NCBI GenBank assembly: GCA_964600295.1 | Contig: CAZRIY010000001.1 | Coordinates: 91,282-155,281 of the forward strand | DNA length: 64,000 bases | Direction: 5' to 3' | From: an uncultured Candidatus Saccharibacteria bacterium | GTDB taxonomy: Bacteria > Patescibacteriota > Saccharimonadia > CAZHVB01 | In this document: positions 2,819 to 39,558 of the stretch, in pieces | How the letters are laid out: each line of letters starts with the position of its first letter | Numbering within the stretch: position 1 is the first letter of the stretch | Made by a program: the position numbers and the translations under genes | The notes under the pieces: model-generated | The model's input: only the letters and a program-made list of their open reading frames with translations | Told to the model about the DNA's origin: nothing | Databases searched by the model: none

Positions 2819-3000
2819 AGTAATTACATTGTATATACATTAGCTTCAACTGGCAATTGATCTTAACTGAAGGGAATAAAGGTTAGATGTAAGAGACTCG
2901 GATGTTAAAGCTTTGCGACGATTTGTCCCTTAGCTTAGAAAAGAAATACCCCCGCGACAATCTTTCACGGAGGTAAAATCTACAAACGGTTGTCTAACTA

Positions 3001-3507: not shown

Positions 3508-3582
3508 TTGATTCGGTCTCCTCCTAAATTCTATATTGCTTATGTTTAATAATATTAGCCTCTACCCCCAACGTCAACCCCG

Positions 3583-4827
3583 TTATTGAGGCGGCGGCGC
3601 GCCACCACCACTGGCTCCGCCGAGATCGAAGTTGATTAGGCCATAGACTGGCAGTAGGATAGCGGCCACAATGACACCGACAGTAACGCCCAAAAATACC
3701 ATCAATATCGGTTCTATAGTGGTAGACATGTTTTTGGTGGCGTTATCCAACTCCTCTTCATAAAACTGAGCGGTTTTGGACATCATAGCGTCGACAGTGC
3801 CGGACTGTTCACCGATTTTTAGCATTTGGGGTACTAGAGCCAGAAAGGTCGGCTCTACTTCCAGCGCGATCGATAGGGCCTTGCCACCCTTCACTTTGTC
3901 GGCTGCTCTTTGCATGGCTTCATCCAGATGAACATTGTTCATAGAACCCCCTACGATGCGCAGCATCTCCAGCATCGGCAGACCGCTGGCCAGTAACACG
4001 CTGCTGGTGCGGCAAAAACGAGCCATATAGAGCTTTTTGAACAGTTTGCCGAAGAGGGGCAATCGTAACTTTAGCCGATCGGCAATCCGTTTGCCGCCAA
4101 GAGTGCGGAAATAACGTATCAAGGCAATACCACCACCAATTAGGATAATCAGAATCAACCACCAAAAGCTCTTCACAAAGTTGGCCACGGCTAGCAGAAT
4201 GGCGGTCAGAAACGGTAAATCTTTGCCCAAATCCTGATAAAGCTGCGAGATTTGGGGCAGGACTGTGGTTAGCATGAATAGCAGTACCAATGTAATCACT
4301 ACCAAGACAATGACGGGGTAAATCATGGCCCCGCGGATTTTGGAAATTAGCGCGTGGTCTTTTTCCTGTTGATCGGCGATACGAGCTAGCGATTTATCCA
4401 AGCTACCCGAAGCCTCACCGGCGGCAATCAGATTAACATAGATGGTGTTGAAAACTTTGGGATGCTTACCTAAGGCATCGGCTAGCGCCGTGCCGCCTTC
4501 GATGTCGGTAATGACCTGATTAACGATCGTCAGCAGCATTTTATTATCAATTTGTTCGCGGACTGTGCGCAGGCTCTGGGCCAAGGGCAGGCCGGCGTTA
4601 ATCAGAGTGGATAACTGACGGCTGAACAGCACTAGTTGCTTGGCGCCGACCCGATTGGTAATAAAACCAAACATGGCACTACCCTTATCTTTAGGCTCTA
4701 TAGTGATTGGAAACAGATCCTGGCTAATTAAGAGCTTGGCGGCTGAGCTCTCGCTATCGGCTTGGACTTCGGCTTTAACCGTCTGACCATCAAGATTATT
4801 CTTGGCGGTGTAAACAAAGGTAATCAT
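3583..4827 (-). CDS. pilC: Type IV pilus assembly platform protein PilC (GspF family)
   Basis: The 414-aa product has two GspF-type repeats with three TM segments and the typical N-terminal MITFVYTAKN...GQTVKAEV. Confidence 0.9.
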   Translation of the reverse strand: MITFVYTAKNNLDGQTVKAEVQADSESSAAKLLISQDLFPITIEPKDKGSAMFGFITNRVGAKQLVLFSRQLSTLINAGLPLAQSLRTVREQIDNKMLLTIVNQVITDIEGGTALADALGKHPKVFNTIYVNLIAAGEASGSLDKSLARIADQQEKDHALISKIRGAMIYPVIVLVVITLVLLFMLTTVLPQISQLYQDLGKDLPFLTAILLAVANFVKSFWWLILIILIGGGIALIRYFRTLGGKRIADRLKLRLPLFGKLFKKLYMARFCRTSSVLLASGLPMLEMLRIVGGSMNNVHLDEAMQRAADKVKGGKALSIALEVEPTFLALVPQMLKIGEQSGTVDAMMSKTAQFYEEELDNATKNMSTTIEPILMVFLGVTVGVIVAAILLPVYGLINFDLGGASGGGAPPPQ

Positions 4828-4952
4828 TTGATTACCTTTTTAAGATACAAACTACAAGATACAAGTAACAAATTTCCCTTGAGCATGTGGGATGTGGGGT
4901 TTGGTGCCTGGTTGTATCCTTGTTTCTTAGTCATTGTTTCTTGCCCTTCGGG

Positions 4953-6026
4953 CTAGCCTCGCATCAGCCGTTCTAGCTCTTCTAGATCGAGCGCGTAATC
5001 TTTGGCTTCTTCGTAAGTAATAACTCCGCTATGGATGAGGGCCACCAAGGCTCGGTCCATTGATTGCATGCCTTTTTCGGCCCCGGTCTGGATTACCGCA
5101 TCCAGTTGATGAGTTTTGGCCTCGCGGATAATATTGCGCACGGCCGAGGTCACCACCAAAACTTCAGTGGCCGGTACTCGCCCGCCGCCGATCATCGGAA
5201 TCAAGCGCTGGGAGCAAACCCCCTGCAGAATAGAAGCCAATTGAACCCGGATTTGCTGCTGCTGGTGGGGCGGAAAGACATCTACCATGCGGTCGATCGA
5301 TTGGGCAGCCGAATTGGTGTGCAGAGTGGCCAGTACTAAGTGGCCAGTCTCAGCAATGGTAATGGCGGCGGCGATAGTTTCTAGATCACGCATCTCGCCA
5401 ATCAGCACTACGTCGGGGTCTTGGCGGAGGCTAGAACGCAGAGCCGAGGCAAAAGAGTAAGTGTCATAGTGGACTTCGCGCTGGACCACCATGGCTTTTT
5501 TGCTTTTATGGGTATATTCGATGGGATCCTCGATGGTAACAATATGAACGGCTTTTTGGTCATTGATCTTATCGATCATGGCGGCCAGCGTTGTGGATTT
5601 ACCGCTACCGGTAGGACCAGTCACCAGTACCAGACCGCGGGGGTACCCCGTAAAGGTTTCGATGACTTTTGGCAGCTTAAGATCTTCAAGGGTACGAATC
5701 TGGTTGGGAATTAGCCGTAGCGCCGCGGCTAGATTGCCACGTTCGTGGAAAGCGTTGACGCGGAAGCGGGCTTCATCACCAAAGGCAAAGGAAAAGTCGA
5801 ATTCTTTGTCCTTGAGCAGCATTTGTTTTTGCTCTTCGTCCAAAATTGAGAAAATTAGTTGTTCAGCAGTCTCCTCTGTTAGGGCAGGTGAATTCTCGAA
5901 CGGAATGAGCTTACCGTCGACCCGCAGGGTTGGCGGTAAACCGACTTGGAGATGAATATCCGAAGCCTTACGATTAACGACTTGTTCTAATAAAACTTCA
6001 ATCCTAGTTGGTCCGGCAGCTGCCAT
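4953..6026 (-). CDS. pilT: Twitching-motility retraction ATPase PilT
   Basis: The 357-aa product has a Walker A (GPTGSGKSTT), Asp and His boxes and a PilT-length C-terminus. Confidence 0.88.
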   Translation of the reverse strand: MAAAGPTRIEVLLEQVVNRKASDIHLQVGLPPTLRVDGKLIPFENSPALTEETAEQLIFSILDEEQKQMLLKDKEFDFSFAFGDEARFRVNAFHERGNLAAALRLIPNQIRTLEDLKLPKVIETFTGYPRGLVLVTGPTGSGKSTTLAAMIDKINDQKAVHIVTIEDPIEYTHKSKKAMVVQREVHYDTYSFASALRSSLRQDPDVVLIGEMRDLETIAAAITIAETGHLVLATLHTNSAAQSIDRMVDVFPPHQQQQIRVQLASILQGVCSQRLIPMIGGGRVPATEVLVVTSAVRNIIREAKTHQLDAVIQTGAEKGMQSMDRALVALIHSGVITYEEAKDYALDLEELERLMRG

Positions 6027-7798
6027 TACGTCCTCGCGTCCGCCGCTACCCGTTCGACTTCATCTAAGGTCGTAAAACCGGTTAGAGCCTTAAGATAACC
6101 GTCTTCTTGCATGGTTAGCATGCCTTCGGCACGGGCTTGAGCTTCCACCTGACCAGAGGTAGCATGTTGGGTTAATAGTTTTTCTAAGCTATCACTCATA
6201 TTAAAAACCTCGAAGACACCTACTCTGCCGCGGTATCCATTTGGGCATTCTTCACTGTCTTTACCCTTAAATAAAGTATAAGCGTTTTGATCGGACAAGG
6301 GCAAGTTACCGTAGCCATATTCTTTAGCCAGGCGGGGAACATCGGCCTGGTTCTTGGGCAGTAATCTACTAACTTTCTTCTTGATGGCTTGGGTTTGGGT
6401 GGGTGTGCTTTGGAGCGTTTCGTGATCTTTACAGATACGCCTAACCAGACGCTGGGCCATGATAGTATTAACGGTCGAAGCAATCAAAAAGGGTTCTATG
6501 CCCATGTCCAACAAGCGGGGCAAAACACCGGCCGCCGAATTGGTGTGCAAGGTTGAGAGTACCAAATGCCCGGTCAGGGCGGCTTGCACCGCCAAGGTGG
6601 CGGTTTCGTTATCGCGGATCTCACCGACAAGTACGATATCGGGGTCTTGGCGCAAGACCGAGCGCAAACCCGAAGCAAAGGTTAAACCCACCGGCGGATT
6701 AATCTGGATCTGGTTAACACCAGAGATTTTGCGTTCCACTGGATCCTCGAGGGTGACGATATTGATGGTTTCGTCTTTAATCATCTGCAAAATGGTATAG
6801 AGTGTGGATGATTTGCCCGAGCCGGTCGGCCCGGTGGACAGAATCATACCGTGAGGTCGTTTGGAGCCCTCTTGCACCAAGGACAGTGAATGACCGCGCA
6901 AGCCAAGGTCGGCTAGGCTCAGATCCTGATCCTCCTTACTGAGCAGCCGCATCACTACCTGCTCACCCCAGACTACTGGAGATATGGCTACCCTAATATC
7001 AATTTCCTTGCTGGCCGAGGAAATATGGAATTGGCCGTCTTGGGGAACTCGGTGTTCATCAATCTTCATTGCAGACAGAATTTTGACCCGCGATATCAGC
7101 GCCGGTTCGCTGCCTTTGGGTAAGGTCATAATTTCGCGCAACAGGCCGTCGACTCGGACTCGGATGCGAACTTCGTGCTCGGTGGGCTCGATGTGGACAT
7201 CTGAGGCACCGGCCTGGACGGCATAGTCCAAAATGGCCTTGAGCGCCCGGGTAATCGGCGAATCTTGCACCAAGTTGGCTACGGCTTGAGCACTAGTGGT
7301 ACTATCCAAGTCTTTGGGCGTTAAATCGATTCCGCTTATTACGCTGCGCATATCTCCGACATCGGGTTTATAGTGGGCCAGGATACGCTCAATACCGACC
7401 TGGGAGGCCATAAAGACCACAACCGGTCGGCCAATTTTACCGGAAATATAATCAATCGCCTGGATATTGGTAGGATCGAGCATTCCCACCGCCAGCTTGC
7501 CCTCCATATCACCCAATGGTACGGCCTTGTACTGTTGGGCCAAATCTATGGGTAGGGACTTCAAGATCTCCGGTTTGACTGAGGCCTTTTGGAGATTAAC
7601 GTAGGGCACGTTGGTGGCCCTAGCAATCAGCTTGGTTAGCTCCTCGGGATCTATCAGTTTTTTTTCGGTAACTAGGGTCAACAAGGACTTATCGGACTTG
7701 GCGGCCTCGACTTTTAGTTGCTCAAGCTGTGCCTTAGTAACGGCTTTCTTTTCAACCAACCAATCTTCGACTCGGCTCTGGCTCTCGACGGACAGCAC
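6026..7798 (-). CDS. pilB: Type IV pilus extension ATPase PilB (GspE family)
   Basis: The 590-aa product has an N-terminal GSPII_E_N-like domain, a Walker A (GPTGSGKSST) and a tetracysteine region. It uses a GTG start with a GGAGG RBS 9 nt upstream. Confidence 0.9.
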   Translation of the reverse strand: MLSVESQSRVEDWLVEKKAVTKAQLEQLKVEAAKSDKSLLTLVTEKKLIDPEELTKLIARATNVPYVNLQKASVKPEILKSLPIDLAQQYKAVPLGDMEGKLAVGMLDPTNIQAIDYISGKIGRPVVVFMASQVGIERILAHYKPDVGDMRSVISGIDLTPKDLDSTTSAQAVANLVQDSPITRALKAILDYAVQAGASDVHIEPTEHEVRIRVRVDGLLREIMTLPKGSEPALISRVKILSAMKIDEHRVPQDGQFHISSASKEIDIRVAISPVVWGEQVVMRLLSKEDQDLSLADLGLRGHSLSLVQEGSKRPHGMILSTGPTGSGKSSTLYTILQMIKDETINIVTLEDPVERKISGVNQIQINPPVGLTFASGLRSVLRQDPDIVLVGEIRDNETATLAVQAALTGHLVLSTLHTNSAAGVLPRLLDMGIEPFLIASTVNTIMAQRLVRRICKDHETLQSTPTQTQAIKKKVSRLLPKNQADVPRLAKEYGYGNLPLSDQNAYTLFKGKDSEECPNGYRGRVGVFEVFNMSDSLEKLLTQHATSGQVEAQARAEGMLTMQEDGYLKALTGFTTLDEVERVAADART

Positions 7799-7818
7799 CT
7801 AGTCCAAACCTCCAGTTT

Positions 7819-7890
<72 letters not shown>

Positions 7891-7897
7891 TTATGTC

Positions 7898-8164
7898 TTA
7901 TTCGGGGCGGAAAGGATTAGTATTGCCAAAACCCTGACTGAAATCAAAGCTCGGAGAGGAAAAACTGGCGGCTTGGAAACGGTTGTTCCGACCGAGCAGG
8001 ATCTGGCGGGCGGCATCATCAAAATTCGGGTCGATTGGCTGGACAACCTCAATGCTGGCCGTGCGGGCTTTGCCACCGCGGCCAAAACGGCTGACTAGGA
8101 AGGAGCCCAGCGCAACCAGCACAATGCCCAGCACCACTAGAGCCAAAATATCTTTAGTTTTCAT
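7898..8164 (-). CDS. Small membrane-anchored hypothetical protein in the pilus operon (position expected for PilP)
   Basis: The 88-aa product has one N-terminal TM segment (ILALVVLGIVLVALGSFLV). It overlaps the pilO-like stop by 11 nt and is therefore operonic. Confidence 0.4.
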   Translation of the reverse strand: MKTKDILALVVLGIVLVALGSFLVSRFGRGGKARTASIEVVQPIDPNFDDAARQILLGRNNRFQAASFSSPSFDFSQGFGNTNPFRPE

Positions 8165-8789
8165 TTATTTCCTCCGTTTGATCACCAATTTGGGTTAGCG
8201 GCTGCCAATAAGTAGTAAGGGTGACGGATAGGGTTAGCGATGGTTCGCTGCCGCTAAAAGTTAAGGTGTTAAGCCGGATCGGCCGCTTGGAATTCTCCAG
8301 GTTGGTCAGCAGTTGTTGCAACGAGACGTACGTACCGTTGGCGCTTAGCTGAAATACCACCTCTTGGGAGGTGGCTACGCCGCTAGCCATTGGCTGCTCG
8401 CCAGCAACAGCTACTTGAGGGGAGAGCGATTGTAGTTGGACGCCAACTAGCGTGGCGGCGGCTTCTAGTTCGGCTGTCAGCCCTGCGTAATCAGGCGAAT
8501 TCGGTAGCGCCCTAAAGATATCAAAGACCGGCGGACCATTGTCTTCCAGAAACTTAAAGTTCTCCTGAAGTTTGGGTATAGCAGCCACGTTTTCCTCCAG
8601 GGTGTTTTTGGCCGCGTTTTTGCGCGAAATCACCTTATTATTAAAGCCGATATCGCCCAGCCAAGTCTTGGACAGCACAATGCTAATAGCTACCACCAGG
8701 GTGGTCAGGCTCATCAGACCAGCAATTAATCGGTTATTAGTGAGGGTTACTTTGGGATGTAGCAAATGCATCTTCTTCAGCTTAGCCAT
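8154..8789 (-). CDS. pilO: PilO-like pilus assembly protein
   Basis: The 211-aa product has a single N-terminal TM segment followed by a coiled-coil. It sits in the pilM-pilN-pilO position, overlapping the pilN stop. Confidence 0.55.
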   Translation of the reverse strand: MAKLKKMHLLHPKVTLTNNRLIAGLMSLTTLVVAISIVLSKTWLGDIGFNNKVISRKNAAKNTLEENVAAIPKLQENFKFLEDNGPPVFDIFRALPNSPDYAGLTAELEAAATLVGVQLQSLSPQVAVAGEQPMASGVATSQEVVFQLSANGTYVSLQQLLTNLENSKRPIRLNTLTFSGSEPSLTLSVTLTTYWQPLTQIGDQTEEINEN

Positions 8790-9387
8790 TGGGTTCTCCG
8801 TCGATTAGCCTGGCATCAAAGCTGGCCTTGATGGTGAAGTTGACCTCGGAGCCAGACGGTCCACTGGCATTTTCCAGTACCACGCTGGTGAAATAGCCCC
8901 TGATTTGGGGATCATCTTCAACCCGATTGGGATCTTGCAAATCACCAGCAACTAGTAAGGCCCGATAAAGCCTGTCAACTCCGGCATAGCTGGGAGAAAC
9001 TCCGGATAGGGTTAGGCCGCCGCTGGTATCTATTTCGATGTTAGATAACCGGATCTCGGCGGGCAAAACGCTGGGCAAGAAGGCCATTAGCTCTGATACT
9101 ACTAGCCGCTGTTCATAGAGGGATGGCAAAGAGGATAAATGATCTTTAACCGTTAACATGGTGGTGATATTGGGGGTACTCTGCAGTGTGGCTTTGTGCT
9201 GATCAATCCGGTCCTGGGTGCGATTCAGCAATAAGGCTTGGCTGCCTTTGATGGCCAATAACAACACCGGAACGCCGATGGCCACAGCCATAATGATGCT
9301 AGAGATAACAATCGATAACTTGCGGGCGCGTTGGGCGCGCAGACGTACCTGTTTACTGTCTGGTAGCAAGTTTACTTGCTTAACCAT
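8782..9387 (-). CDS. pilN: PilN-like pilus assembly protein
   Basis: The product starts MVKQVNLLPD, the conserved PilN N-terminal motif, then has one TM segment. It lies downstream of pilM. Confidence 0.7.
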   Translation of the reverse strand: MVKQVNLLPDSKQVRLRAQRARKLSIVISSIIMAVAIGVPVLLLAIKGSQALLLNRTQDRIDQHKATLQSTPNITTMLTVKDHLSSLPSLYEQRLVVSELMAFLPSVLPAEIRLSNIEIDTSGGLTLSGVSPSYAGVDRLYRALLVAGDLQDPNRVEDDPQIRGYFTSVVLENASGPSGSEVNFTIKASFDARLIDGEPNG

Positions 9388-9573
9388 GTATCACCTCCCT
9401 GCGGTCGGTGCAATTTCTAATTTCTAAATGGTTCGGCAGGCTCTCCATCCTGAGCACAGGCGAAGGACAAGCACCAATTCCCAATAAACCAACCCCTAAA
9501 CAGTTTGAAATTTGGGATTTTATAAATTGGGATTTGTTTAGGATTTCGGATTTAGACATTAGAGTTTCCTTCA

Positions 9574-10629
9574 TCATTGTCGCTCCCTTAGCGCCAAGCC
9601 GCAAGCTACGGCAAACTGGTTGGACAACTCGGCCAGCTGCCCGGATATGCCGGATCGGCTGCCAATCTTAGCCCACGCATCCCCAATTTCCACCGGCAAA
9701 CCAACGCTGTTGGCCAAATGGGCTGGAAATTCCGGCATCATACCCGCCTTGCCGGTCAATATAATTTTGCTCACTTTGGTGCCTTTGTAATGACCTTCAA
9801 AAAACTTGGTGGATTTATCAATTTCCGACATCAGGGTATCAACGCTTCCCTTGATGGCTTTTCTAACTTGGCTCTCCATCTTTTGAGCTAGACCGAACTT
9901 ATAAACGAATTGGTAGGCCTGATCGGGTTCTAGATTCAGCCCTTGGGCGGCGGCCTTAACAAAATTATTACCGCCGACTGGGATGGAACGAATCATTTTG
10001 AGCGAATGGCCAGCCACTGTTACCAAATCGGTGGCGGTTTCGCCAACGTCCAGCACCGTCACAGCACCGGCTTCTTGGGGTTTAACCAGAGCGCGGGCCA
10101 AAGCGATGGCATCGGGTTCCAGCGCCAAGACCTCTAGATCGGCGGCTTCCAGCACAGCGAGTGTGCGCTCCGACAGACCAATTGGCACGGCTACAATTAG
10201 GACTTCTTGCTGTTTGCCATCTGCGGATTCACCGGCTAGCATCCAGTCCAATTTAACTTTATCTAGCGCCATCGGCACATGCTGTTCGGCTTGGTAGCGA
10301 ATGCCCTTTTCTAGCTCCGAGGGCGCCATTTTGGGTAGACTAATCAATGCCGAGAAAACCTTGGCCGAGGGCAGGCCGGAGACCACATTCTTGGTGGTTA
10401 CCCGGCTATCACTAATGAGTTTTTTGATAGCTTCGACCACCGATTGGCGATCTACTGGGGAATCGCTGGCCATGACTTTGGCTTCCATGGGTACCCAACC
10501 ATAGGTTACCAACTGAGCGCTAGCGCCACTCTTTCTGACTTGAACTAAACGAATACCTGAGGAACCAATATCTAAACCAATTATATTATTGTCGGTTTTA
10601 AACAACGCCATTATCTCCAAGTTTATCAT
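9574..10629 (-). CDS. pilM: Type IV pilus assembly protein PilM (actin-like ATPase fold)
   Basis: The 351-aa product contains IIGLDIGSSGIRLVQV and two actin-like subdomains. A GGAG RBS precedes the start. Confidence 0.85.
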   Translation of the reverse strand: MINLEIMALFKTDNNIIGLDIGSSGIRLVQVRKSGASAQLVTYGWVPMEAKVMASDSPVDRQSVVEAIKKLISDSRVTTKNVVSGLPSAKVFSALISLPKMAPSELEKGIRYQAEQHVPMALDKVKLDWMLAGESADGKQQEVLIVAVPIGLSERTLAVLEAADLEVLALEPDAIALARALVKPQEAGAVTVLDVGETATDLVTVAGHSLKMIRSIPVGGNNFVKAAAQGLNLEPDQAYQFVYKFGLAQKMESQVRKAIKGSVDTLMSEIDKSTKFFEGHYKGTKVSKIILTGKAGMMPEFPAHLANSVGLPVEIGDAWAKIGSRSGISGQLAELSNQFAVACGLALRERQ

Positions 10630-10873
10630 AAGGGCTTTATTAGAGGCTAGCGGTTAGAAATTAGAGCCTAGAGAATAGACATTAAAGGTTAGATGCAGAC
10701 TTTACTAGTAAAATCTTGCCAGCATTTTTGCTAGAGGCTAGAGGTTAGTAGCATTTATTGAGCTCGAGAAGATCGTTATAAACCATTCAATAATTTGTGC
10801 GGCTTGAGGCCTGGATTTGCTAATTTTTCAAAAATACATCCATCCATGAATTCTTACATTTAAATTTAATTCT

Positions 10874-11746
10874 TTATAGCGGCTCGCTGTCCAAGTTGGT
10901 CTTTTGCTCAGTTTCCGCCCCTTGGTAGCAATCATTCTGCAGCTGGCTCTCAAGAGAGCTGCATAACACGCGGGCCCTAGCAAGGTCATGCCCGGTATAA
11001 AACATAAGGCCCTCACCCATGGCCTGCAGACACATGCCAATTAAGCTTTGTTCTTGGGTATTTAAGATGCTTTCGCATACTCGAGGAAGCGAAGACTGCA
11101 AATCAGACAGGGATTGTCCAAGGTAATTGTTCATATTTTCCATGAAAACTCCGCCAAGACAGGTCTCCTGATGGAAATCGTCAGGCAACTGTCGGCACAA
11201 CCCTACCACTGACTCGAGTTGGCTGAGCTGGTGTCGCAATAGCCCATGACCGACACCGTGGATGCATTGACGGCGGCGCAGCCAATCCGTTCCAATTGAC
11301 GAACAAAGCTCCGGAACCTCACTAATAATTTGGTCAGTGCTCCTGGTTTCTGCATAGCTCTCCATAACCCCGTGGAAGCAACCTTCGATGCATCCAAGTG
11401 GACAGGTTACAAAGGCTTGGGCAGTATTGTTCCGATATTTTTCAAAATTGGTGTGGCCAACTTGGTGAGCAATCAGATGACAATCATCAACTATATGCTG
11501 TTTGCGAAACTGCTGAGCTTGGGTGATGGCAGCTTCGGCTGAATCCTGCATGGTTAGCTTGGAAAAATACGGCAAGAGGCAGGCTGAACGCTGATATGCT
11601 TGAGCCATTGCCAGGCAATCCGCCGGAATCTCTACTAAGTTATTGTTAGCTTCTTTTTTACCAGTAAAAACCATCCCTATAAGCAAAGTTAATAGTAAGA
11701 GTAATCCTATCCAGATATTCTGTTGCTTATAGAAAGGTCTAATCAT
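10874..11746 (-). CDS. Secreted or membrane-anchored Cys/His-rich protein, paralog A, function unknown
   Basis: An N-terminal TM or signal segment is present. The motifs are CHLIAHQVGH, CPLGCIEGCFHGV, QCIHGVGHGLL and CLGGVFMEN, with the same threefold C..C-[YF]HG repeat as the ORFs at 14892 and 16060. Confidence 0.6.
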   Translation of the reverse strand: MIRPFYKQQNIWIGLLLLLTLLIGMVFTGKKEANNNLVEIPADCLAMAQAYQRSACLLPYFSKLTMQDSAEAAITQAQQFRKQHIVDDCHLIAHQVGHTNFEKYRNNTAQAFVTCPLGCIEGCFHGVMESYAETRSTDQIISEVPELCSSIGTDWLRRRQCIHGVGHGLLRHQLSQLESVVGLCRQLPDDFHQETCLGGVFMENMNNYLGQSLSDLQSSLPRVCESILNTQEQSLIGMCLQAMGEGLMFYTGHDLARARVLCSSLESQLQNDCYQGAETEQKTNLDSEPL

Positions 11747-11775
11747 TTCTAAACCCTAGAAATAGCCTCTAATCC

Positions 11776-14700
11776 CTAGAACACCGGCGGGCGTTCAGAT
11801 TGAGAACGGATCTGGGTGGTAACGCTACCCAATCCAAGGGGTGGGCGCAACAGTAGTTGGGGTACGTAGTTAACGCACTCGGCTGCTTTGTTGCCCACTG
11901 GGCAATCCACGCCGTCAACTCCGGTGCGTACATCGCCAACCGTGCGGCGAAACTGAAAACTGCTGGCCACCAGGGCTCCTTGGACGGTCAAGGGTTGGCC
12001 GCAAGCGGCAGCACCCACGGCAGTGCCAATAGCTATGCCAGTCGGGTCTTGGCAGGTGTTGATAACGCCGCTGCTGCCCGTGCTGCCAGCATAATAAATA
12101 CCGTAGAGGTTTGTGACTATGGGCGAGATATTGATACCCCCGCGGGAAATTACGCCGAAAGAGGGAATGGTATCCCGCCTGAAAGGAAAGCTAGCTGAGA
12201 TATTGCCAACAATTTGTACCGTACCCCCCACTACGAACGTAGTTCTTTTTCCAACTGGTAGGATGCCGCCTAAAATCGTCAGATCACCGTTATATTTGAA
12301 GATACCATCAGGTAGACTGGGGTCGCTAAGATTAACTACACCTGGCGCTGCGAATGGACCTGGATAATCGGCTACAGTGCTGTCAGGAGCGAGGTAGCGG
12401 GCAGCCAGATCCAGTCGGCAGACGCGGCCATAGCCGCCGTGGGGCGAGCTGCGACTGCCAAATTTTAGGCTCAAATCAGTAGGTGAAGTTACAGAGCCGG
12501 CGGAACCAAAGTTATTGATATTGGCCCCGGCTGAAACTACAAAGCTGGCCCTGGAGCCGCGTAGGTCTTGGACACGGCCGCGGACGCTACCGCTACCGGG
12601 GACCAGGCAGGGTGCGCCAAAGTTGGCCCCGGCTTGGACGCTGCCACCCAGGGTGGATAGAACCGGTTTGCGAGAGATTACTACTTTTAGGCACCGAGGT
12701 GTAGGGTCTATGTATTCGGCATTGCTATCGCTATTAGGACTGGCAAAGGCCTGAAAGCAAATGGCCCCAATGTCATCGGAGTCTACAGCGCCATTGAAGT
12801 TGCTATCTAAATAGGTAGGGGCCGTAGGGCTGACGGTAAAGGTGAAAGACACATCTCTTCTACCGCCCGCGGGTAAGTCCGGATAGTGCCAGTGATAACA
12901 AGGGGCCCTGGGGCCACAATCTAGATTATAACCAAAGCTATCGGCCGGCGGCGAAGAAGTGTTGTTGGGTGTCAATGGTGCGGTGGTATACGCGCTGTTT
13001 TGATTCTGCACCCGTAAATACACCGGTAGAGAAGTTGATGCTCCTAAATTTTCTAGCCGTGCATTTATGGTGTAGGGGTTGCCCGGCTCCACCGTGGTAA
13101 AGATGGTTGAGCCATTGGGCGCCAGTCCTTCGGGCAATACATCGCCCTGATTATCAAACGGGGGTGGTAGGGGTGTGGGATAAGCATAGGGTGTGCCGTA
13201 GGCATAGGGTGTGCCGTAGGCATAGGGTGTGCCGTAGGGATAGGGTGTGCCGTAGGGATAGGGTGTGCCGTAGGCATAGGGTGTGCCGTAGACAATGGGT
13301 TCCAGAAAAATGCGGTCTTTGACATTAGGATCCCCATAATTCTCTGACTGGTAAGCACCAAAATAGCTAGAAAAATACGCACCCAGATCATCAATCGACC
13401 TGGTGCGACCGTTTTCGAGTGGTAGATTGCGATAAGCTATAGAATTAAAATTTGGCGCACCGATATCGAAATTCCAGGTAACAAAGCAGTTTAAGCCAGT
13501 GCCGCCGGCATTACCGGAAGGTTCTCCCACCTTAAACCAGTTTGCACTGCGATAGATAGCAGCACCATATTTGCCGCAGGGGTCCGTATTACCTGGAGGT
13601 GGCCCACCTTGATTCGGCGTAACCCAAAAATCATAGATCGCTGGATTTGGCCATACGCCGCTACCAACCCACGCGGTTACGGCCGCCATGGGGTGCTGCG
13701 TACAATGGTCGGGCCCGTGAGTAGCTTTAACTTTGGCTGGCAGCCAAAAGCTCTGCAGCTTGCTTGAGATCTGCTTGAAGATGCGGCTGGTTGTTCGCAG
13801 GGCCTGCCCAACTAATTCCTTGGCTGCCTTTTGTCGCTCTTGGACTAGATATTCCTTTATATAAATTTTGGTGGTCTTTTCCTTTTTGACTGATTCTAGA
13901 AAACCCCTCCAATCTGAATATTGTCCGGTTGTCTTTGCAAGTAACCGGTAAATGGCGTAATAGCCACCGTCGGAGCGAATTAACCCTGTGTGAGAACCAA
14001 TTTCTTGAAGCTGGGCCATTTTTTCCCATTCCTTCATATCCATTAAGTGCAGCGCGGCAGTCTTGGCATTCATACCGGTATCGCCTACCCTATCTACCAC
14101 AAACGAACTCGATTGAGGATCTTTTTGAATCTGCTCAATCTTGCGCGTTATTTCGTCTTGAGAGGCACCATTCTCAAATAGCGGCAGCAGGTCGGATTCC
14201 ACTTTTTGTTTGGCTACAGAATCCCATTCGTCATCGGGATGGGCATCGGAAGCACGCATATCCCATCGGACATAAACACCAAAAAGCGAGCGGCTATCGA
14301 TTAGCACGCTTTCTAACTTGACTCTGAATAGTTGGCTGCGCTCGATGCGCTTTATCAACGCGGCGTCCCAATTCCGACCACTCTGTAAATTAACCTTGGC
14401 CAGGAAAGCGGCTTCGTTGCCGTCGGCCTTGATTAATTCCTGGTAGCGTTGTTCAACTTCTTCGGTGCTAACCGCAATCCCATGTTTAGTGGCTTCATCC
14501 TCTAGAGCCTTTTCCATAATCAGGAAATCTAGAGCATGGAGGTTCAGGGCGAAGAATGGACCGGTATCCTGGTCGTCTTCGGTGCCGGCCAAAAAGCTAA
14601 GTTTAGGCTTGAAGGCTTCATATTCGGCCACGGTAATCTCTTTGCCTCGAACCTCGGCCGCGATCCCGGCTCTCAGTTTGGGGTTCGTAAAGAAATTGCT

Positions 14701-14832
14701 AAGACGAGGCAAAACTGTGTAAGTTGAAAAAATTAGAGCCGCTAATGCCAGGACAAAAATAGCTGCAATAATTCCCAGGCGTAATGGGTAGGCAAGCTTG
14801 CTAAATTTTACCCTTAGTTTTGAAGGCCGCAT
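11776..14832 (-). CDS. Large surface protein with a SurA/PpiD-like N-terminal chaperone-like region, a (YGTPY[AP])n repeat and Cys-containing beta-rich C-terminal domains
   Basis: The 1018-aa product has an N-terminal signal-anchor. Residues ~60-350 are alpha-helical and resemble the SurA N-terminus. The central and C-terminal parts are Gly/Asn/Ser/Thr-rich with paired Cys. Confidence 0.65.
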   Translation of the reverse strand: MRPSKLRVKFSKLAYPLRLGIIAAIFVLALAALIFSTYTVLPRLSNFFTNPKLRAGIAAEVRGKEITVAEYEAFKPKLSFLAGTEDDQDTGPFFALNLHALDFLIMEKALEDEATKHGIAVSTEEVEQRYQELIKADGNEAAFLAKVNLQSGRNWDAALIKRIERSQLFRVKLESVLIDSRSLFGVYVRWDMRASDAHPDDEWDSVAKQKVESDLLPLFENGASQDEITRKIEQIQKDPQSSSFVVDRVGDTGMNAKTAALHLMDMKEWEKMAQLQEIGSHTGLIRSDGGYYAIYRLLAKTTGQYSDWRGFLESVKKEKTTKIYIKEYLVQERQKAAKELVGQALRTTSRIFKQISSKLQSFWLPAKVKATHGPDHCTQHPMAAVTAWVGSGVWPNPAIYDFWVTPNQGGPPPGNTDPCGKYGAAIYRSANWFKVGEPSGNAGGTGLNCFVTWNFDIGAPNFNSIAYRNLPLENGRTRSIDDLGAYFSSYFGAYQSENYGDPNVKDRIFLEPIVYGTPYAYGTPYPYGTPYPYGTPYAYGTPYAYGTPYAYPTPLPPPFDNQGDVLPEGLAPNGSTIFTTVEPGNPYTINARLENLGASTSLPVYLRVQNQNSAYTTAPLTPNNTSSPPADSFGYNLDCGPRAPCYHWHYPDLPAGGRRDVSFTFTVSPTAPTYLDSNFNGAVDSDDIGAICFQAFASPNSDSNAEYIDPTPRCLKVVISRKPVLSTLGGSVQAGANFGAPCLVPGSGSVRGRVQDLRGSRASFVVSAGANINNFGSAGSVTSPTDLSLKFGSRSSPHGGYGRVCRLDLAARYLAPDSTVADYPGPFAAPGVVNLSDPSLPDGIFKYNGDLTILGGILPVGKRTTFVVGGTVQIVGNISASFPFRRDTIPSFGVISRGGINISPIVTNLYGIYYAGSTGSSGVINTCQDPTGIAIGTAVGAAACGQPLTVQGALVASSFQFRRTVGDVRTGVDGVDCPVGNKAAECVNYVPQLLLRPPLGLGSVTTQIRSQSERPPVF
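13184..13291. repeat. Near-perfect 18-bp tandem repeat (6 units) inside the surface-protein gene
   Basis: The unit GCATAGGGTGTGCCGTAG (variant GGATAGGGTGTGCCGTAG) is repeated six times and encodes YGTPYA/YGTPYP on the minus strand. Confidence 0.9.
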
Positions 14833-14891
14833 TTAAACTTACTATAGATGAGCCCTCTACCCCAGTCAAACCGCTTCGATTACCTCCACAA

Positions 14892-16046
14892 TCAGCCACC
14901 GAACCTTTTGCAAGGCTGGCGTTGGTTGGCATCAGCTTCATGAATGCGATCACAGGCTGCTTGCTGCTCTTCTTGGCTAGTTGTGTAAATCGAAATAACC
15001 GCGCTTAAGTGTTGATAACACTTCGACTTGTCTAAATCCGTAAGTTGAGCGCACATCTCATATGGCATTGATCGGTCACCCACCGAAAAGGCCGCTTTTA
15101 CGATAGTTATGTAACAAAAGACACGCCAATCCGCCGGTAGGTTATCGCACAGGCTAATGACTTTGGGTGTCTGGTTTTCTGTTAACGGGTGGATTTGGTT
15201 CGATAAACCATAAAAACAACTTTCTTTATCAACTTCAGGCGCAACTCCCAGACAGATCTGGCCAATTTTTACTAGATCACCGAAGTAACGTTGATATAAT
15301 ATTTGCGGCTGATTGTTCCAACAAGGCTTGGTGTATTCGGGTTTTAGACGCGTGTCATTGCAGGGATAGCTATCATCACCCGGTTTAACCCATCTGTCTG
15401 GTGAGGGCGCTCCGCTATGCAATCCCCAAACGTTTTCCATAAAGGCGCCGTCGAGACAGTTGTAGAGGGGAAAGCTGGGAATATTTGCACCCAATTTGTC
15501 GCATTGTTCAAGCCCCTTAGTTAGGTTGGCATAGCCAACAGCCGCCACATAACCGTGGCCAATACCGTGGGCACAGGAAAGCGGTACTCCCGGTCCTTCC
15601 TTTTGACAATGTTCGATAATTTTCTTGATATCAACCATGTCATTATCGGCTTCGCCGGAAATAACGTGCAGCAGCAGACCGTGGTAACAAGATTCCAAAA
15701 AATAAGTGCGGCAGAGCGTAATACCCTCCACGCCGTGTTTCTCATATATATAATCCCCGGCTGTATGATTTAACAGATGCGTTTCACCAGTAAAGGGCAA
15801 GCCGGAGCGAAATAGTTGCTCTTGGGCTTCAACCGGTCCTACGCGTTCTAAAAGTAGCCGGTAAAATTTTATCCGCTCCTGTTTGTTGTTGGTTGCCAAA
15901 ATATTTTGAATTTCCTGGCTGGTACCCTGTCCTGATTGTTCTGGCTGAAGCCTTACCCACATATTTAGACCGATAATTACAGCGATTAGCGCCAAGATAA
16001 CGCCTAATTGCCACCTATATTTAAGTGCCTGCTTTATGACGCCCAT
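14892..16046 (-). CDS. Secreted Cys/His-rich protein, paralog B, function unknown
   Basis: The motifs are HLLNHTAGDYIY, CRTYFLESCYHGL, SCAHGIGHGYV and NCLDGAFMENV. The ORF table starts it at 16085, overlapping the upstream gene. An ATG at 16044-16046 has a GGTGA RBS and leaves 13 nt after the upstream TAA, so 16046 is the preferred start. Confidence 0.55.
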   Translation of the reverse strand: MGVIKQALKYRWQLGVILALIAVIIGLNMWVRLQPEQSGQGTSQEIQNILATNNKQERIKFYRLLLERVGPVEAQEQLFRSGLPFTGETHLLNHTAGDYIYEKHGVEGITLCRTYFLESCYHGLLLHVISGEADNDMVDIKKIIEHCQKEGPGVPLSCAHGIGHGYVAAVGYANLTKGLEQCDKLGANIPSFPLYNCLDGAFMENVWGLHSGAPSPDRWVKPGDDSYPCNDTRLKPEYTKPCWNNQPQILYQRYFGDLVKIGQICLGVAPEVDKESCFYGLSNQIHPLTENQTPKVISLCDNLPADWRVFCYITIVKAAFSVGDRSMPYEMCAQLTDLDKSKCYQHLSAVISIYTTSQEEQQAACDRIHEADANQRQPCKRFGG

Positions 16047-16059
16047 TGTACTTTTCACC

Positions 16060-17568
16060 TTATCTACCCTCCCGGCTCTTAACAATATCGACTATTCGGA
16101 GGCATTCGATAACCTTGTCCTCTTGGTTGATTGCCCGGCATATCTTTTGTGCATTATCCCACCAACCATTATAGGCTTGGAAGACTATAGCATCCGCCGC
16201 CTCGGTTAAGCACCATTCGTTCCCCTGCTGGTACGGAGATGATTGGCATAAATTGATAATTGAATCGGTATTTTCTTTACTCGCCCCACCGGCTTGTGAA
16301 CCAGTGCCACGGAAGCAATGCTCTTCTAATATTGGAGCTGGAGCTTGAGAACAAAGCTTGATACTTTGGGTTAAATCGTGGCCGATGGATTGCAGCCTAA
16401 TGGGCTGCCAACGGCCGCAAGCCTCATGATAAATGGAGCTTAATTCCCGACAGAGTTTCCATGAGTCGTTGGCATCTACTGCGGTTGCGCCGAGCGACGT
16501 GGCTTGTTCCATAAATACCCCATCATAGCAATATTTTCGATGCTCTGGTTTCATCCGATCGCAGGCGACTAGCGCGGGTTTGAGCTCAAGGTTGTGTATA
16601 GTTAGTACCCCATGGCCAACACCGTGGTAACAGCTAGGTGCCTGGTCGGCTGGCAACGCTTTGGTACAAGCCTGTTCAATTTCCGTTACAGCTCTTTCGC
16701 CAAGACCGTTTATAGCCTCCTCTGATACGCCATGATAACAGCCATAGGCGAACTCTCTATCGCAAATTTCGACACCCGAGACACCTGATCTGCGGTAGGC
16801 GGCATTGCCAACTATGTGGGCAAGTTCGTGGCCATTTGCGATAGCTTGGTCCTCCACCAGAAAGGCTTTTTTTAGATACTCCCACGCTCCTCTTGGATTC
16901 TGTTGAGCGTATGTTTGCAGTAAATCGAGTTGTCCTTTATAGTCCAGGCTTCGAAATTCCTCGATCGGCGGGAGATTTTTTTTACCAATTTTTGGCAACC
17001 AATTTCCAAATGCTGACCATAACCTCCCAAACATTCCATGTTTGGTTCCGCCAACCTCTATGACCATGATGTGCCCTGGTGACAGGTGATCGTGCATTCC
17101 CCAGCTGCCGAGTTTCTCAAATTTAAAACTGTAGGTTTCGGCCGGTTTTAGATTGCGGCAAGCATCCAATTGGCTGCCTAAGCAGCCCTTCTCATCGGAA
17201 GGATAGACGGTGTGGGTGGGATGATTGTTAGAAGCTGGCCAGACCTCAGACTTTGATTGGTTAGTAAAGACCACGGTTTGCCCGGGTTTAATGGCCAGCC
17301 TGTTGGGTCTAAAGCCGTCGTCGGTCATAGCCACCGCTACTGAACCATCTGGCCGCAATGAATCTTGATGGGACCAGCCCACAATTAGCACTCCGCCCAA
17401 CATAATTAGACCAATGAGCAGCTTGAGTTTGGACAGTCGCCCCAACCGACTCTTTATTTTAACCCTCAATCTTGACCACACATAAGTAATTCTAAAGAAA
17501 GTGGTTAGTGACTTACAACCATCTACTGTTTGATACTGGTGAACTCCTTTGTTTTGTCGGCGCCCCAA
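16060..17568 (-). CDS. Membrane-anchored cupredoxin-like domain fused to a Cys/His-rich domain (paralog C, with HExxH)
   Basis: A TM segment spans residues ~47-65. Residues ~82-172 read IKPGQTVVFTN...HPTH...ETYSFKFEKLGSWGMHDHLSPGHIMVIEV, a cupredoxin-like pattern. The remaining motifs are GHELAHIVGNAAY, CDREFAYGCYHGV, SCYHGVGHGVL and YCYDGVFMEQ. Which Met is the true start is uncertain. Confidence 0.55.
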   Translation of the reverse strand: MGRRQNKGVHQYQTVDGCKSLTTFFRITYVWSRLRVKIKSRLGRLSKLKLLIGLIMLGGVLIVGWSHQDSLRPDGSVAVAMTDDGFRPNRLAIKPGQTVVFTNQSKSEVWPASNNHPTHTVYPSDEKGCLGSQLDACRNLKPAETYSFKFEKLGSWGMHDHLSPGHIMVIEVGGTKHGMFGRLWSAFGNWLPKIGKKNLPPIEEFRSLDYKGQLDLLQTYAQQNPRGAWEYLKKAFLVEDQAIANGHELAHIVGNAAYRRSGVSGVEICDREFAYGCYHGVSEEAINGLGERAVTEIEQACTKALPADQAPSCYHGVGHGVLTIHNLELKPALVACDRMKPEHRKYCYDGVFMEQATSLGATAVDANDSWKLCRELSSIYHEACGRWQPIRLQSIGHDLTQSIKLCSQAPAPILEEHCFRGTGSQAGGASKENTDSIINLCQSSPYQQGNEWCLTEAADAIVFQAYNGWWDNAQKICRAINQEDKVIECLRIVDIVKSREGR

Positions 17569-17976
17569 TCGTTAAGTATCATACCGAATTGGTCTTAAGA
17601 TGACTTTAAGTATTGGCGATTGGTATATTAGAAGAGTATAACTAACCAAATATGCTCCGCGCGACCAAACAGCTTTATAGCCTACTTAGACAAACCAGAA
17701 AACCATGGGTTATATTTGTACTGCTTCCGCTGATAATTATCGCTCTTATCATCCTCATCGCCAGCGCCTCACCAGTTCCAGTCTTTCTCTACCCGTTTGT
17801 ATGAGAAATTTCGTCAAATACTGCAACCGGCAGGTAGTGAAAATTCTGTTGGTTCTACTGTATGTCTGCTTTTTTGGTATTGCGCGATTAATACGAACTC
17901 TTGGTACTAAGTCTGTATCCAGCCCTAAATGGAGTGTGCCCAAGCAGACAAGTGATATTAGAACCAAAACCCCCTA

Positions 17977-19665
17977 TTGAGCATGAATATTCTAGGGATA
18001 TCGGCTTTTTTCCACGATAGTGCGGCGGCTTTGATAGTAGATGGCCGAGTGGTATGTGCCTTTGAGGAAGAACGCTTTAGCCGCATCAAACACGACAATC
18101 AATTCCCGGTATTAAGTATCCAGCACTGTCTCGATACTGGAGGCCTCTCAGTCAATGATATCGACAGCGTTGTCTATTATGAGAAACCTTTACTAAAGTT
18201 AGAACGCATTTTAGATACCTTTATTCAAACATTTCCTCGTTCGTTGCGCCCATTTGTGGCAAATATGCCCGAAATATTAATTCATAAACTCGACATCGCC
18301 TACACTTTACGCAAAACGATTGGGTTCAGAGGCCAGATATTCTATCTCCCGCACCACTTGTCTCACGCTGCGGCTGCTTTTCTAACATCATCATTTAAAG
18401 AGTCCGCGATATTGACAGTAGATGGTACGGGCGAGTACCAAACAACTGCTCTGTGGGCCGGCAACTCTAGGAGAATAACTGAGCTAGGGTCACTAAATTT
18501 TCCCCATTCTTTGGGTTTGTTCTACTCGACTTTCACTGCTTTTTTGGGCTTTCGGGTTAATGACGACGAGTATAAAGTTATGGGCCTGTCGGCTTACGGT
18601 AAGCCAAGTTTTGTATCCGATATGCGGAGGCTAATAGACATGGCGGCAGACGGTAGCCTGCGTCTCAATATGGACTACTTTGGATTCCAACACTCGGAGC
18701 AAATGTGGGCCCCGGCTTTTGAAAAACTGTTTGGTAGAGCCCGCGCGCGCGGCGACCCAATGACTAAACACCATAAAGATATAGCGGCTAGCGTTCAGGC
18801 TCTGTTTGAGGAGATATATTTTCGAATTCTTAACCATCTCCAGACCCTTACCAACAGCTCCGACCTCTGCCTGGGGGGTGGGGTGGCCTTAAATGCACTA
18901 GCCAATGGCAAAATCTATACTCATACAAAATTCAAACGTGTACACATATTCGGAGCAGCTGGCGATAGTGGTTCGGCGATTGGAGCGGCACTCTACATGT
19001 ATCACCAATTAAATCAGTCCGGCTGGCCGAAGCCAATTACTGGCATGGCGTTGGGGTCAAGTTACAAAGACGCCGAGATTGAAGACTGCTTAGGACAAAC
19101 CCAGCTTAAGTGGGAAAGGGTAGCTCCGAAAAAACTCATTGCCAAAACCGCACAACTCTTGGCGAACGGCAAGGTAGTAGGATGGTTTCAAGGCAAGATG
19201 GAGTTCGGGCCACGCGCACTTGGGTATCGCTCAATCCTGGCAGACCCGCGGCCAGCAGCCATGAAGTCAAAGATTAATAGGATTAAGGGCCGCGAAGCAT
19301 TCCGCCCATTCGGGGGATCCATTATAGATACTGCGACGAATTTATACCTCGAAGCTCCCGGGGGCCTAGTATCACCTTTTATGATTGAGTGTTTCAGAGT
19401 TCGAAGTGCAAAAAAAGATAGTCTGGCTGCGATCACACACTATGATGGCAGTTGCCGCATCCAAACCGTTACGCCCCAAAACGAACGATTTTATCAGTTA
19501 ATCAACGCGTTTAGAGATTTAACTGGTACACCTTGTTTGCTCAATACCAGCTTTAATGTTGCCGGGGAGCCGATGGTAGAACATCCCAGCCAAGCCCTGG
19601 AAGTCTTTGCAACTACGACTTTGGATTATCTCGTAATCGGAAATTTTATGGTGCGCAAGGAATAA
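17977..19665 (+). CDS. Carbamoyltransferase (NodU/CmcH family)
   Basis: The N-terminus is MSMNILGISAFFHDSAAALIVDGRVVCAFEEERFSRIKHDNQFP. The 562-aa product has a Kae1/TsaD-like N-domain and a carbamoyltransferase C-domain. Confidence 0.85.
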   Translation: MSMNILGISAFFHDSAAALIVDGRVVCAFEEERFSRIKHDNQFPVLSIQHCLDTGGLSVNDIDSVVYYEKPLLKLERILDTFIQTFPRSLRPFVANMPEILIHKLDIAYTLRKTIGFRGQIFYLPHHLSHAAAAFLTSSFKESAILTVDGTGEYQTTALWAGNSRRITELGSLNFPHSLGLFYSTFTAFLGFRVNDDEYKVMGLSAYGKPSFVSDMRRLIDMAADGSLRLNMDYFGFQHSEQMWAPAFEKLFGRARARGDPMTKHHKDIAASVQALFEEIYFRILNHLQTLTNSSDLCLGGGVALNALANGKIYTHTKFKRVHIFGAAGDSGSAIGAALYMYHQLNQSGWPKPITGMALGSSYKDAEIEDCLGQTQLKWERVAPKKLIAKTAQLLANGKVVGWFQGKMEFGPRALGYRSILADPRPAAMKSKINRIKGREAFRPFGGSIIDTATNLYLEAPGGLVSPFMIECFRVRSAKKDSLAAITHYDGSCRIQTVTPQNERFYQLINAFRDLTGTPCLLNTSFNVAGEPMVEHPSQALEVFATTTLDYLVIGNFMVRKE

Positions 19666-20563
19666 GCTTTTGGGCAATTAGGTAATCCGCCATTTCTCTG
19701 GCAATGATTTCGTGACCCCGAGTGTTTGGGTGGCCGTCACCCTGAATGATTCCTCCGGAATCATTCAGGCTATCCTGGGATAGTTCGTAATAATAGGTTT
19801 GCGAACGGCCGTCGGCAAAGCTCTTGGCATATTGCTCCAAATTAGAAGCGCGTATATCAAACATTACTAAAGGCTGATTAAAATACTGGCTGGCCGCATG
19901 GAGTGTTTGTGTCTGAAACTGAATATTATCTGCCATAGAATATATATGAGGAGTTTCTTCCGAATCGTCGTGTGATTCTTGGTGATCTTTAAACGGGCGT
20001 GATTGATGATCGCGATCAATTTCGGCTCTTGTCACGAAATCGCTGTCATTAACTTGCCATATGACTAAATCGGGCTTATATTTTTGGCCGCGAAGCCGGT
20101 AGCGTTCAGCGCTATAAGCGATGTCGTAGCCGGGTACACCAAGATTGATGACTTCATATTTAGTAGCGCCCCGACAGGTATAGTTCAACAACTCCGCCAG
20201 TCGTTCTGAATAATTCTCGTTAGCACCTACGTATAAGCCAAAGGTGATTGAATCCCCAAGGCTGATGATTCTGAAGGTGTTGGCTGGTTTCACAACCGTA
20301 TAATCCTGTTGGGCATGCAGACTATCGGCATTGATGCGATACCTAAGATCGCGAACCTCTTTTTGGCCTGTAGCTTGATCGCTATTCGCCTGCAACTCAT
20401 AAAAATTAGCGAACTGGGAACTAGATGCGCTGGCCACGCTAGTTCTGGATATCGGGCTAACGCTTATGTGGGTCTGAAAACTATAATAGGCGTGTATCAC
20501 CAGCAGGGCGACAACAATCACCTCGAGGATAAAAATGTATCCTGTCAGCTCCGGTTTGCGCAT
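19646..20563 (-). CDS. SGNH/GDSL hydrolase family protein with an N-terminal TM anchor
   Basis: Block I is ISLGDSITFG, block III is VNDSD, and block V is DGHPNTRGH. Confidence 0.75.
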   Translation of the reverse strand: MRKPELTGYIFILEVIVVALLVIHAYYSFQTHISVSPISRTSVASASSSQFANFYELQANSDQATGQKEVRDLRYRINADSLHAQQDYTVVKPANTFRIISLGDSITFGLYVGANENYSERLAELLNYTCRGATKYEVINLGVPGYDIAYSAERYRLRGQKYKPDLVIWQVNDSDFVTRAEIDRDHQSRPFKDHQESHDDSEETPHIYSMADNIQFQTQTLHAASQYFNQPLVMFDIRASNLEQYAKSFADGRSQTYYYELSQDSLNDSGGIIQGDGHPNTRGHEIIAREMADYLIAQKLIPCAP

Positions 20564-39169: not shown

Positions 39170-39173
39170 GAAT

Positions 39174-39548: not shown

Positions 39549-39558
39549 GCTGTTTGCG

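Follow-up and report, generated by a model that had tools for sequence, protein, structure and literature searches.

A large unnamed family of membrane-anchored, Cys/His-rich helical-repeat proteins with a possible copper centre, encoded beside a type IV pilus locus of Candidatus Saccharibacteria

What kind of protein is encoded by three Cys/His-rich genes that lie beside a type IV pilus locus in an uncultured Candidatus Saccharibacteria bacterium? The genes, here called A, B, and C, are located at positions 10874-17568 of a 64-kb stretch of DNA (hereinafter referred to as the window; positions count from its first letter). A preliminary description, made from the letters of the stretch, had regarded their products as three secreted paralogues with an internal threefold repeat and had proposed a surface or host-interaction module. 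By sequence comparison, A, B, and C appear to represent three subfamilies in one very large unnamed family. The best explanation of the whole, held tentatively and put not far short of an even chance, is a membrane-held, disulfide-stapled solenoid with a His/Met/Glu metal centre, most likely for copper, with C and B acting together.

Four genes, C, B, a gene encoding a protein of 1018 aa, and A, follow one another in series on the minus strand, separated by 13 nt (C to B), 59 nt (B to the 1018-aa gene), and 29 nt (1018-aa gene to A). The features of this region are the following.

16060-17568, minus strand: gene C, maximal open reading frame (ORF) of 502 aa, with an anchor, a cupredoxin-like domain, and a predicted 7-hairpin Cys/His solenoid
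17047-17349, minus strand: cupredoxin-like beta domain of C
16072-16965, minus strand: predicted alpha-solenoid of C with 7 Cys-pair hairpins, delimited from DSSP of the AlphaFold2 model and from the Cys periodicity
16507-16830, minus strand: invariant motif block of C (H-E-L-A-H ... C-x7-C-Y-H-G ... C-x11-C-Y-H-G-V-G-H-G ... C-x10-C-Y-D-G-V-F-M-E), from the translation and alignments
14892-16046, minus strand: gene B, ORF of 384 aa located 13 nt past the stop of C, with an anchor and a predicted 8-hairpin solenoid
15435-15779, minus strand: invariant motif block of B (H90, H94, C112/C120, H122, C147/C158, H160, H164, C182/C197, D199, M203, E204)
11776-14832, minus strand: 1018-aa gene, with an anchor, a SurA_N-like chaperone domain, a (YGTPYA)x6 linker, and a C-terminal region without a family match
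10874-11746, minus strand: gene A, ORF of 290 aa, with an anchor and a shorter predicted solenoid
11138-11479, minus strand: invariant motif block of A, from the translation

The three ORFs were recovered as previously described, and all motifs quoted for them were found in the translations, namely a first set (HELAHIVGNAAY / HLIAHQVGHTNF / HLLNHTAGDYIY), a second set (CDREFAYGCYHGV / CPLGCIEGCFHGV / CRTYFLESCYHGL), and the strings SCYHGVGHGV / QCIHGVGHGL / SCAHGIGHGY and YCYDGVFMEQ / TCLGGVFMEN / NCLDGAFMEN. The proposed paralogy held as well: BLASTP between the proteins gave E values of 3e-15 (A-C), 8e-22 (B-C), and 1e-8 (A-B), by which they can be regarded as true paralogues, and a family profile searched against the six-frame translation of the window detected A, B, and C only (E 1e-84 to 1e-106). 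In all three proteins, a K/R-rich start is followed by a single hydrophobic helix, in agreement with the N-terminal membrane segment described before, and the bulk of each protein is thus expected to lie outside the cytoplasmic membrane. The probable start of gene C is GTG 17481 or TTG 17469 instead of TTG 17568, and gene B most likely begins at ATG 16046, not at TTG 16085. Homology searches returned 89 homologues of C (2e-154 to 6e-6), all without a name or labelled 'plastocyanin' by the Joint Genome Institute (JGI), and 296 and 42 hits for B and A, respectively. The product of B from ATG 16046 was 100% identical to a public protein (P0133), and that of A to another (P0090).

Counting of Cys positions showed that C-x7-14-C pairs are spaced every 32-37 residues in A, B, and C. 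Seven such pairs were present in C, eight in B, and a core of five in A, which additionally contained an N-terminal pair (C44/C56) and two family-conserved Cys (C89 and C119); the Cys counts across the three proteins were even (14, 16, and 16). AlphaFold2 models of B and C were built from alignments of 44-46 sequences. The model of C had a predicted local distance difference test score (pLDDT) of 90.2 and a predicted template modelling score (pTM) of 0.85, and that of B, which was all-alpha, had 93.6 and 0.84. In both models the domain consisted of successive helix hairpins, in which the first Cys of each pair ends one helix and the second is placed in the first turn of the next; the domain is thereby predicted to be a generic alpha-solenoid. 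The hairpins are approximately 35 residues long and number five in A, eight in B, and seven in C. The His motifs were confined to the first three hairpins and the preceding helix, so the 'threefold' repeat of the preliminary description was too narrow and corresponds to the head of a longer repeat. When repeats were compared with each other by hhalign, the best P values (2e-6 and 4.5e-6) were both obtained among distal repeats of B, and signals for the N-terminal, motif-bearing hairpins were weak; the weak similarity between repeats suggests that the repetition is mainly structural. Only one pair, C100/C108 (profile numbering), was ever missing, and each of the 10 cases had lost both of its Cys (phi 1.0), which is the behaviour of disulfide partners. 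The Cys pairs probably form disulfides that staple the hairpin turns.

Residue conservation was examined in 428 near-full domain copies from 381 family proteins, using profile numbering. Five His were nearly invariant (H78, 100%; H82, 99.5%; H110, 99%; H148, 99.8%; H152, 100%), as were M187 (99%) and E188 (96%); the Cys pairs were conserved at 95-100% each, and several Gly at 92-100%. The mean column identity of the domain was approximately 25%, the rest of the domain drifting to 20-25%. The near-invariant series reads H-x3-H, C-x-H-G, C-x-H-x2-G-H-G, and C-x2-G-x-F-M-E, which comprises five His, one Met, and one Glu. An Asp is additionally present in most subfamilies; in the gene A subfamily, Gly replaces the Asp of C-x-D-G-V-F-M-E, and extra Cys are conserved. 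Near-invariance of His, Met, Glu, and Cys in so divergent a domain is better explained by a cofactor or active site than by packing, and the set of five His, Met, and Glu may be counted among the clearest cofactor-like signatures readable from sequence. These residues occur at +2/+6 after the second Cys, in the second helix of hairpins 1-3, together with an i/i+4 pair on the preceding helix. Since such positions are equivalent on successive parallel helices, the residues are expected as one stripe on a single solenoid face, and both the motif invariance and the helix register suggest that they stack there.

The family carrying this signature is very large. A profile search of 1.84 billion clusters at 50% identity returned 7,706 cluster representatives at the E<=1e-3 level, mostly from the bacterial candidate phyla radiation (CPR) and from DPANN archaea, and 6,319 at E<=1e-10; some proteins have as many as 13 domain copies in tandem. 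No match covering the Cys/His domain of A, B, or C was obtained from Pfam or NCBIfam, even at E<=1, 38 diverse members had no Pfam hit in common, and the family profile gave nothing against PDB sequences at E<=10. Foldseek returned designed armadillo, importin, PP2A-A, and tetratricopeptide repeat (TPR) proteins with TM scores of approximately 0.2. No solved or curated relative was thus within reach of the tools used, which agrees with the earlier statement that the domain belongs to no named family. Literature searches on cupredoxin or cysteine-rich proteins from CPR bacteria and from DPANN archaea, on Saccharibacteria plastocyanin, and on PF03640/COG4315 found nothing relevant.

Among the 381 proteins, 225 contained the domain alone, 69 a cupredoxin-like domain followed by the domain, and 20 a cupredoxin-like domain with two domains; in smaller numbers, the cupredoxin-like domain was found at the C-terminus. 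The only further fusions encountered were with PF00127-type domains (P0277 and P0130), with a leucine-rich repeat (LRR) in one protein, with CopC in one, and in two giant members. In a single case (P0088), CopC was followed by a polytopic membrane region and then by the family domain. The N-terminal polytopic region of P0377 was considered as a ferric-reductase or CopD-like domain and dropped, because Pfam gave only E 0.42. The C-terminal tails of two giant members resemble, by eye only, a glycosidase (NagZ-like) and FG-GAP repeats.

One genome per species was scanned for family genes, which yielded 76 loci. Most belonged to Patescibacteria (Saccharimonadia, Paceibacteria, Microgenomates, and Doudnabacteria), and DPANN archaea were also represented, including a closed Aenigmarchaeota chromosome. 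Other hosts were few: Methylocystis rosea SV97, Longimicrobium, Solirubrobacterales, Chitinophagaceae, and Limnocylindrales. Some of the NCBI labels ('uncultured Gammaproteobacteria') look unreliable. The closest relatives of the window were metagenome-assembled genomes of Saccharibacteria/Saccharimonadales (42-51% identity).

The N-terminal part of C (17047-17349), a cupredoxin-like domain, was missing from the preliminary description, the overall interpretation of which is only partly supported. This domain has the Greek-key beta-sandwich of cupredoxins and the invariant motifs W-P-A-S-N-x-H-P-T-H-x-x-Y-P and H-D-H-L-x-P, and its Pfam scores were sub-threshold. In a HMMER alignment to amicyanin, the N-terminal His ligand was kept, Cys92 aligned with an invariant Asp that has an invariant His on either side (H-D-H), His95 aligned with a variable position, and Met98 aligned with Leu, Met, or Phe. 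The type-1 ligand set, His ... Cys-x(n)-His-x(n)-Met, was thus absent from the domain of C. With the blue-copper Cys changed to Asp and the C-terminal His and Met lost, the domain is a relative of cupredoxins and not a blue copper protein; H-P-T-H and H-D-H together form an invariant His4/Asp set. A resemblance of H-D-H to the H-C-H of multicopper oxidases received no support: hhalign against Escherichia coli CueO gave E 0.26 over an irrelevant 13-residue stretch, and a multicopper-oxidase-like reading of H-P-T-H / H-D-H is retained as no more than a lead. In the closest relative (locus L001), a canonical amicyanin/plastocyanin-type gene at 7473-7928 (H ... C-S-P-H-P-Y-M; PF00127, 1.4e-19) ends 1 nt before the C orthologue. 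A blue-copper gene next to the C type was found in no other locus, and a divergent carbamoyltransferase gene occupies this position in the window.

Subfamily profiles resolved sharply defined B and C types. The B type was the best-defined orthologous group, its genes scoring 300-600 bits versus approximately 140 for the next subfamily. The C type was present in 52 of the 76 loci, the B type in 44, and both in 36; where both occurred, they were located within 4 kb of each other in 31 loci and joined in a single ORF in 10. The C-B fusions are proteins of approximately 800 aa with 32 Cys in DPANN archaea. Further paralogues, up to about eight, were present in many loci. True A-type orthologues stand alone in unrelated contexts, and the 1018-aa protein is barely conserved in the closest relative, where only a 56-bit partial match was found. 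The three copies bracketing a giant protein, to which the preliminary description had drawn attention, are therefore real as a local arrangement only; the 1018-aa protein is not a conserved partner of the family, and the conserved unit consists of C and B.

The 1018-aa protein itself matched Pfam SurA_N_2 at its N-terminus (3.7e-8), and its other approximately 850 residues matched no family. Its YGTPY(A/P) run is encoded by six copies of an 18-nt unit (97% match) at 13184-13291. A similar (S/E)TPYPTPY run was found at the C-terminus of a B-type homologue of Methylocystis rosea (L072, 7899-9170). Runs of this type may serve as a shared envelope-spanning or glycosylated linker.

According to the copper-centre explanation, A, B, and C would each be tethered to the cytoplasmic membrane by the single N-terminal helix, and an alpha/alpha solenoid of right-handed type, made up of 5-8 hairpins with a disulfide at each hairpin turn, would be exposed on the outside. 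The stripe of five His, Met, and Glu would hold metal, most likely copper, and the ligand inventory would permit one or two ions. Rather than proteolysis, the function would be the handling of copper or copper-dependent chemistry at the cell surface, and we lean to surface redox or copper-dependent chemistry. The cupredoxin-like domain of C would probably act as a second metal site, or as an electron or metal relay. C and B probably work together; their pairing, like the fusions in archaea, suggests a unit of two subunits. Binding of a metal of any kind by the domain is probable. That this metal is copper lies slightly on the less likely side of even, and a truly new type of copper enzyme would be unlikely.

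Copper is favoured by the presence of Met with several His, by the repeated cupredoxin-derived fusion, by the one CopC fusion, and by the blue-copper gene abutting the C orthologue in the closest relative. Met plus several His is typical of extracytoplasmic copper ligand sets, such as those of CopC, PcoC, CusF, and the CuM site of peptidylglycine alpha-hydroxylating monooxygenase (PHM). Several points weigh against this explanation. The cupredoxin-like domain has no type-1 ligands and is thus no evidence for copper by itself, 225 of the 381 members are without a cupredoxin domain, a CopC fusion and a blue-copper neighbour were each seen only once, and the ZIP-type transporter neighbours in three loci fit zinc equally well. 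Few copper enzymes are known from CPR and DPANN organisms, and it is not evident why these would need many copper proteins. The clustering of His, Met, and Glu and the proximity of Cys to Cys are predictions from register and sequence, and the expansions of paralogues (up to eight per locus) with variable surfaces would also suit a binding scaffold.

A scaffold of this kind would be a metal-free, disulfide-hardened surface adaptor or adhesin, akin to Sel1-like or Hcp, ARM, and HEAT repeats, for contact with host cells or pilus components, in which the conserved His, Gly, Met, and Glu are structural (helix packing or capping). We consider it unlikely. Working faces of binding scaffolds vary, yet conservation here reaches 96-100% across thousands of clusters for seven polar residues, of which five are His, and the recurrent cupredoxin-like and CopC fusions would be unexpected for an adhesin.

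The neighbouring pilus genes raise another possibility, namely that the C and B pair is a dedicated type IV pilus accessory, acting in assembly or function in envelopes without an outer membrane, with a metal as an optional component. Gene A is separated by 244 nt from pilM, which is followed by a complete type IV pilus gene string.

490-10629, minus strand: type IV pilus gene string (PilM, PilN, PilO, PilB, PilT, PilC, pilins, and prepilin peptidase), downstream on the same strand, identified by Pfam
9574-10629, minus strand: PilM
6026-7798, minus strand: PilB
4953-6026, minus strand: PilT
3583-4827, minus strand: PilC
1384-2259, minus strand: prepilin peptidase

The link to the pilus drawn in the preliminary description stands for the window and for 12 of the 76 loci, in which B- or C-type genes lie next to pilB, pilC, pilM, or pilin genes. 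These loci span Saccharimonadia, Doudnabacteria, Zambryskibacteria, and Minisyncoccia. The genes are co-directional in the window, L001, and L002, and the B type is on the strand opposite to the pilus genes in L030, L039, L062, L075, and L076. By a rough estimate, which is reckoned rather than computed, chance alone would give adjacency within 8 kb in 2-3% of cases for a genome of approximately 1 Mb. In the remaining 64 loci the flanks contain no pilus gene, the loci are not independent of one another phylogenetically, A-type genes stand alone, and family members of DPANN archaea, Methylocystis, Longimicrobium, and Chitinophagaceae are found in unrelated contexts. A dedicated pilus role is improbable on this evidence, and it is mutually compatible with the other readings.

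Another candidate is a zinc- (or iron-) dependent, zincin-like hydrolase, in which H-x3-H and a further His would bind zinc and the Glu of F-M-E (or, in C, that of HExxH) would act as general base on targets that possibly include host envelope polymers. It agrees with the helical H-x3-H spacing, which equals that of HExxH and reads HELAH in C, with the 96% conservation of Glu188, and with the ZIP transporter genes adjoining three loci. It is also improbable, as HExxH is found in C only (HLIAH in A and HLLNH in B, with Leu at the Glu position; of 46 aligned sequences, 25 have Glu there, 12 have Asp, and 9 have another residue) and no peptidase was among the fold-search matches listed. The zincin-like fold proposed earlier, and with it a zincin protease, was rejected for these reasons.

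Within the copper-centre explanation, a bolder version would define a class of extracellular copper centres that has gone unrecognised. Such a centre, which may be binuclear or shared by domains, would be built on stapled repeats, served by the His4/Asp cupredoxin, and characteristic of the ultra-small CPR/DPANN episymbionts, with surface oxidative chemistry as its function. Such chemistry may act, for example, on the host envelope beside the pilus, or in quinone-independent thiol oxidation where a respiratory chain is absent. We rate this version as doubtful.

Clustering of all flanking ORFs across the loci identified further neighbours. A gene of PF03640 (Lipoprotein_15, 'secreted repeat') was located directly downstream of the B type in eight loci (L005, L010, L019, L024, L027, L030, L061, and L074), mostly convergent and co-directional in one; one of these loci is a Chitinophagaceae contig. 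No solved structure and no literature were found for PF03640. DsbA-like thioredoxin genes were neighbours in three loci, as were ZIP transporter genes, and the flanks of the Solirubrobacterales and Longimicrobium loci were uninformative. A neighbour with HH...H...HxH...M in L037 and L042-L044 was considered as a PHM-type copper monooxygenase and dropped, as Pfam gave no support. Promoter and terminator scans over 9300-18200 gave nothing above shuffled expectation.

In the window, a PemK/MazF-type toxin gene (2259-2591, minus strand) is located inside the pilus string, between the pilin and prepilin peptidase genes. The other side of gene C is flanked by a carbamoyltransferase gene of the NodU/CmcH type (17977-19665, plus strand) and a GDSL-like lipase/acylhydrolase gene (19646-20563, minus strand), neither of which is a recurrent neighbour of the family. 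Farther away, two tandem sigma-70 family genes (42600-43631 and 43677-44798, minus strand) were found immediately downstream of dnaG; region 1.1 is present in the second, upstream copy and absent from the other. At 36000-40000 the GC content is 0.43-0.44 versus approximately 0.49 elsewhere, with negative GC skew, and fpg (37062-37955) and holA (35588-36538) are at the edge.

Most surface proteins of CPR and DPANN organisms have no known function, though both groups form a large share of microbial diversity. The present family, which exceeds 7,700 clusters at 50% identity, has confident models and no entry in Pfam, NCBIfam, or PDB, and it includes a conserved two-gene C-B module, often beside the pilus machinery used on hosts. 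Naming of the domain and metal analysis of the ectodomain would annotate thousands of genes and could uncover new metal chemistry where symbiont and host meet. Should the His prove structural, the family would still be a new disulfide-stapled repeat scaffold meriting a database entry.

Among known systems, zincins share the H-x3-H helix pair, which reads HELAH in C, and differ in fold and in the conservation of the Glu, with no family match. Copper storage proteins (Csp) are four-helix bundles with unpaired Cys thiolates, whereas the present domain is a predicted solenoid of approximately 300 residues with coupled Cys pairs at the turns; none was among the fold matches listed, and the family is not assigned to them. 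Compared with amicyanin, plastocyanin, Cupredoxin_1, and EfeO-type proteins, the N-terminal domain of C has H-D-H in place of the type-1 Cys and an extra invariant H-P-T-H. For CopC/CopD (YcnJ-like) proteins, the P0088 fusion links the domain to copper handling at the outer face of the membrane, but this fusion is a single one, CopD was not detected in it by Pfam, and the window proteins have neither CopC nor CopD. Armadillo (ARM), HEAT, and TPR solenoids, designed and natural, are also among the closest known systems. The nearest architecture is that of the Hcp/Sel1-like proteins (HcpA/B/C, PF08238). Hairpins of the Helicobacter Hcp proteins are stapled by a disulfide between two nearby Cys, and the present family likewise appears to have extracytoplasmic alpha/alpha hairpins of approximately 35 residues with an intra-repeat Cys pair. 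Homology to Sel1/Hcp was rejected, as the architecture is alike but the sequence signal is absent; no SEL1 or TPR profile matched any of the 38 members at E<=1. Hcp/Sel1-like proteins are also without the invariant His/Met/Glu set and the cupredoxin partner, unlike the family described here. The family is new, and it belongs to a familiar general kind, that of secreted helical repeats stapled by disulfides, with a partner derived from cupredoxins.

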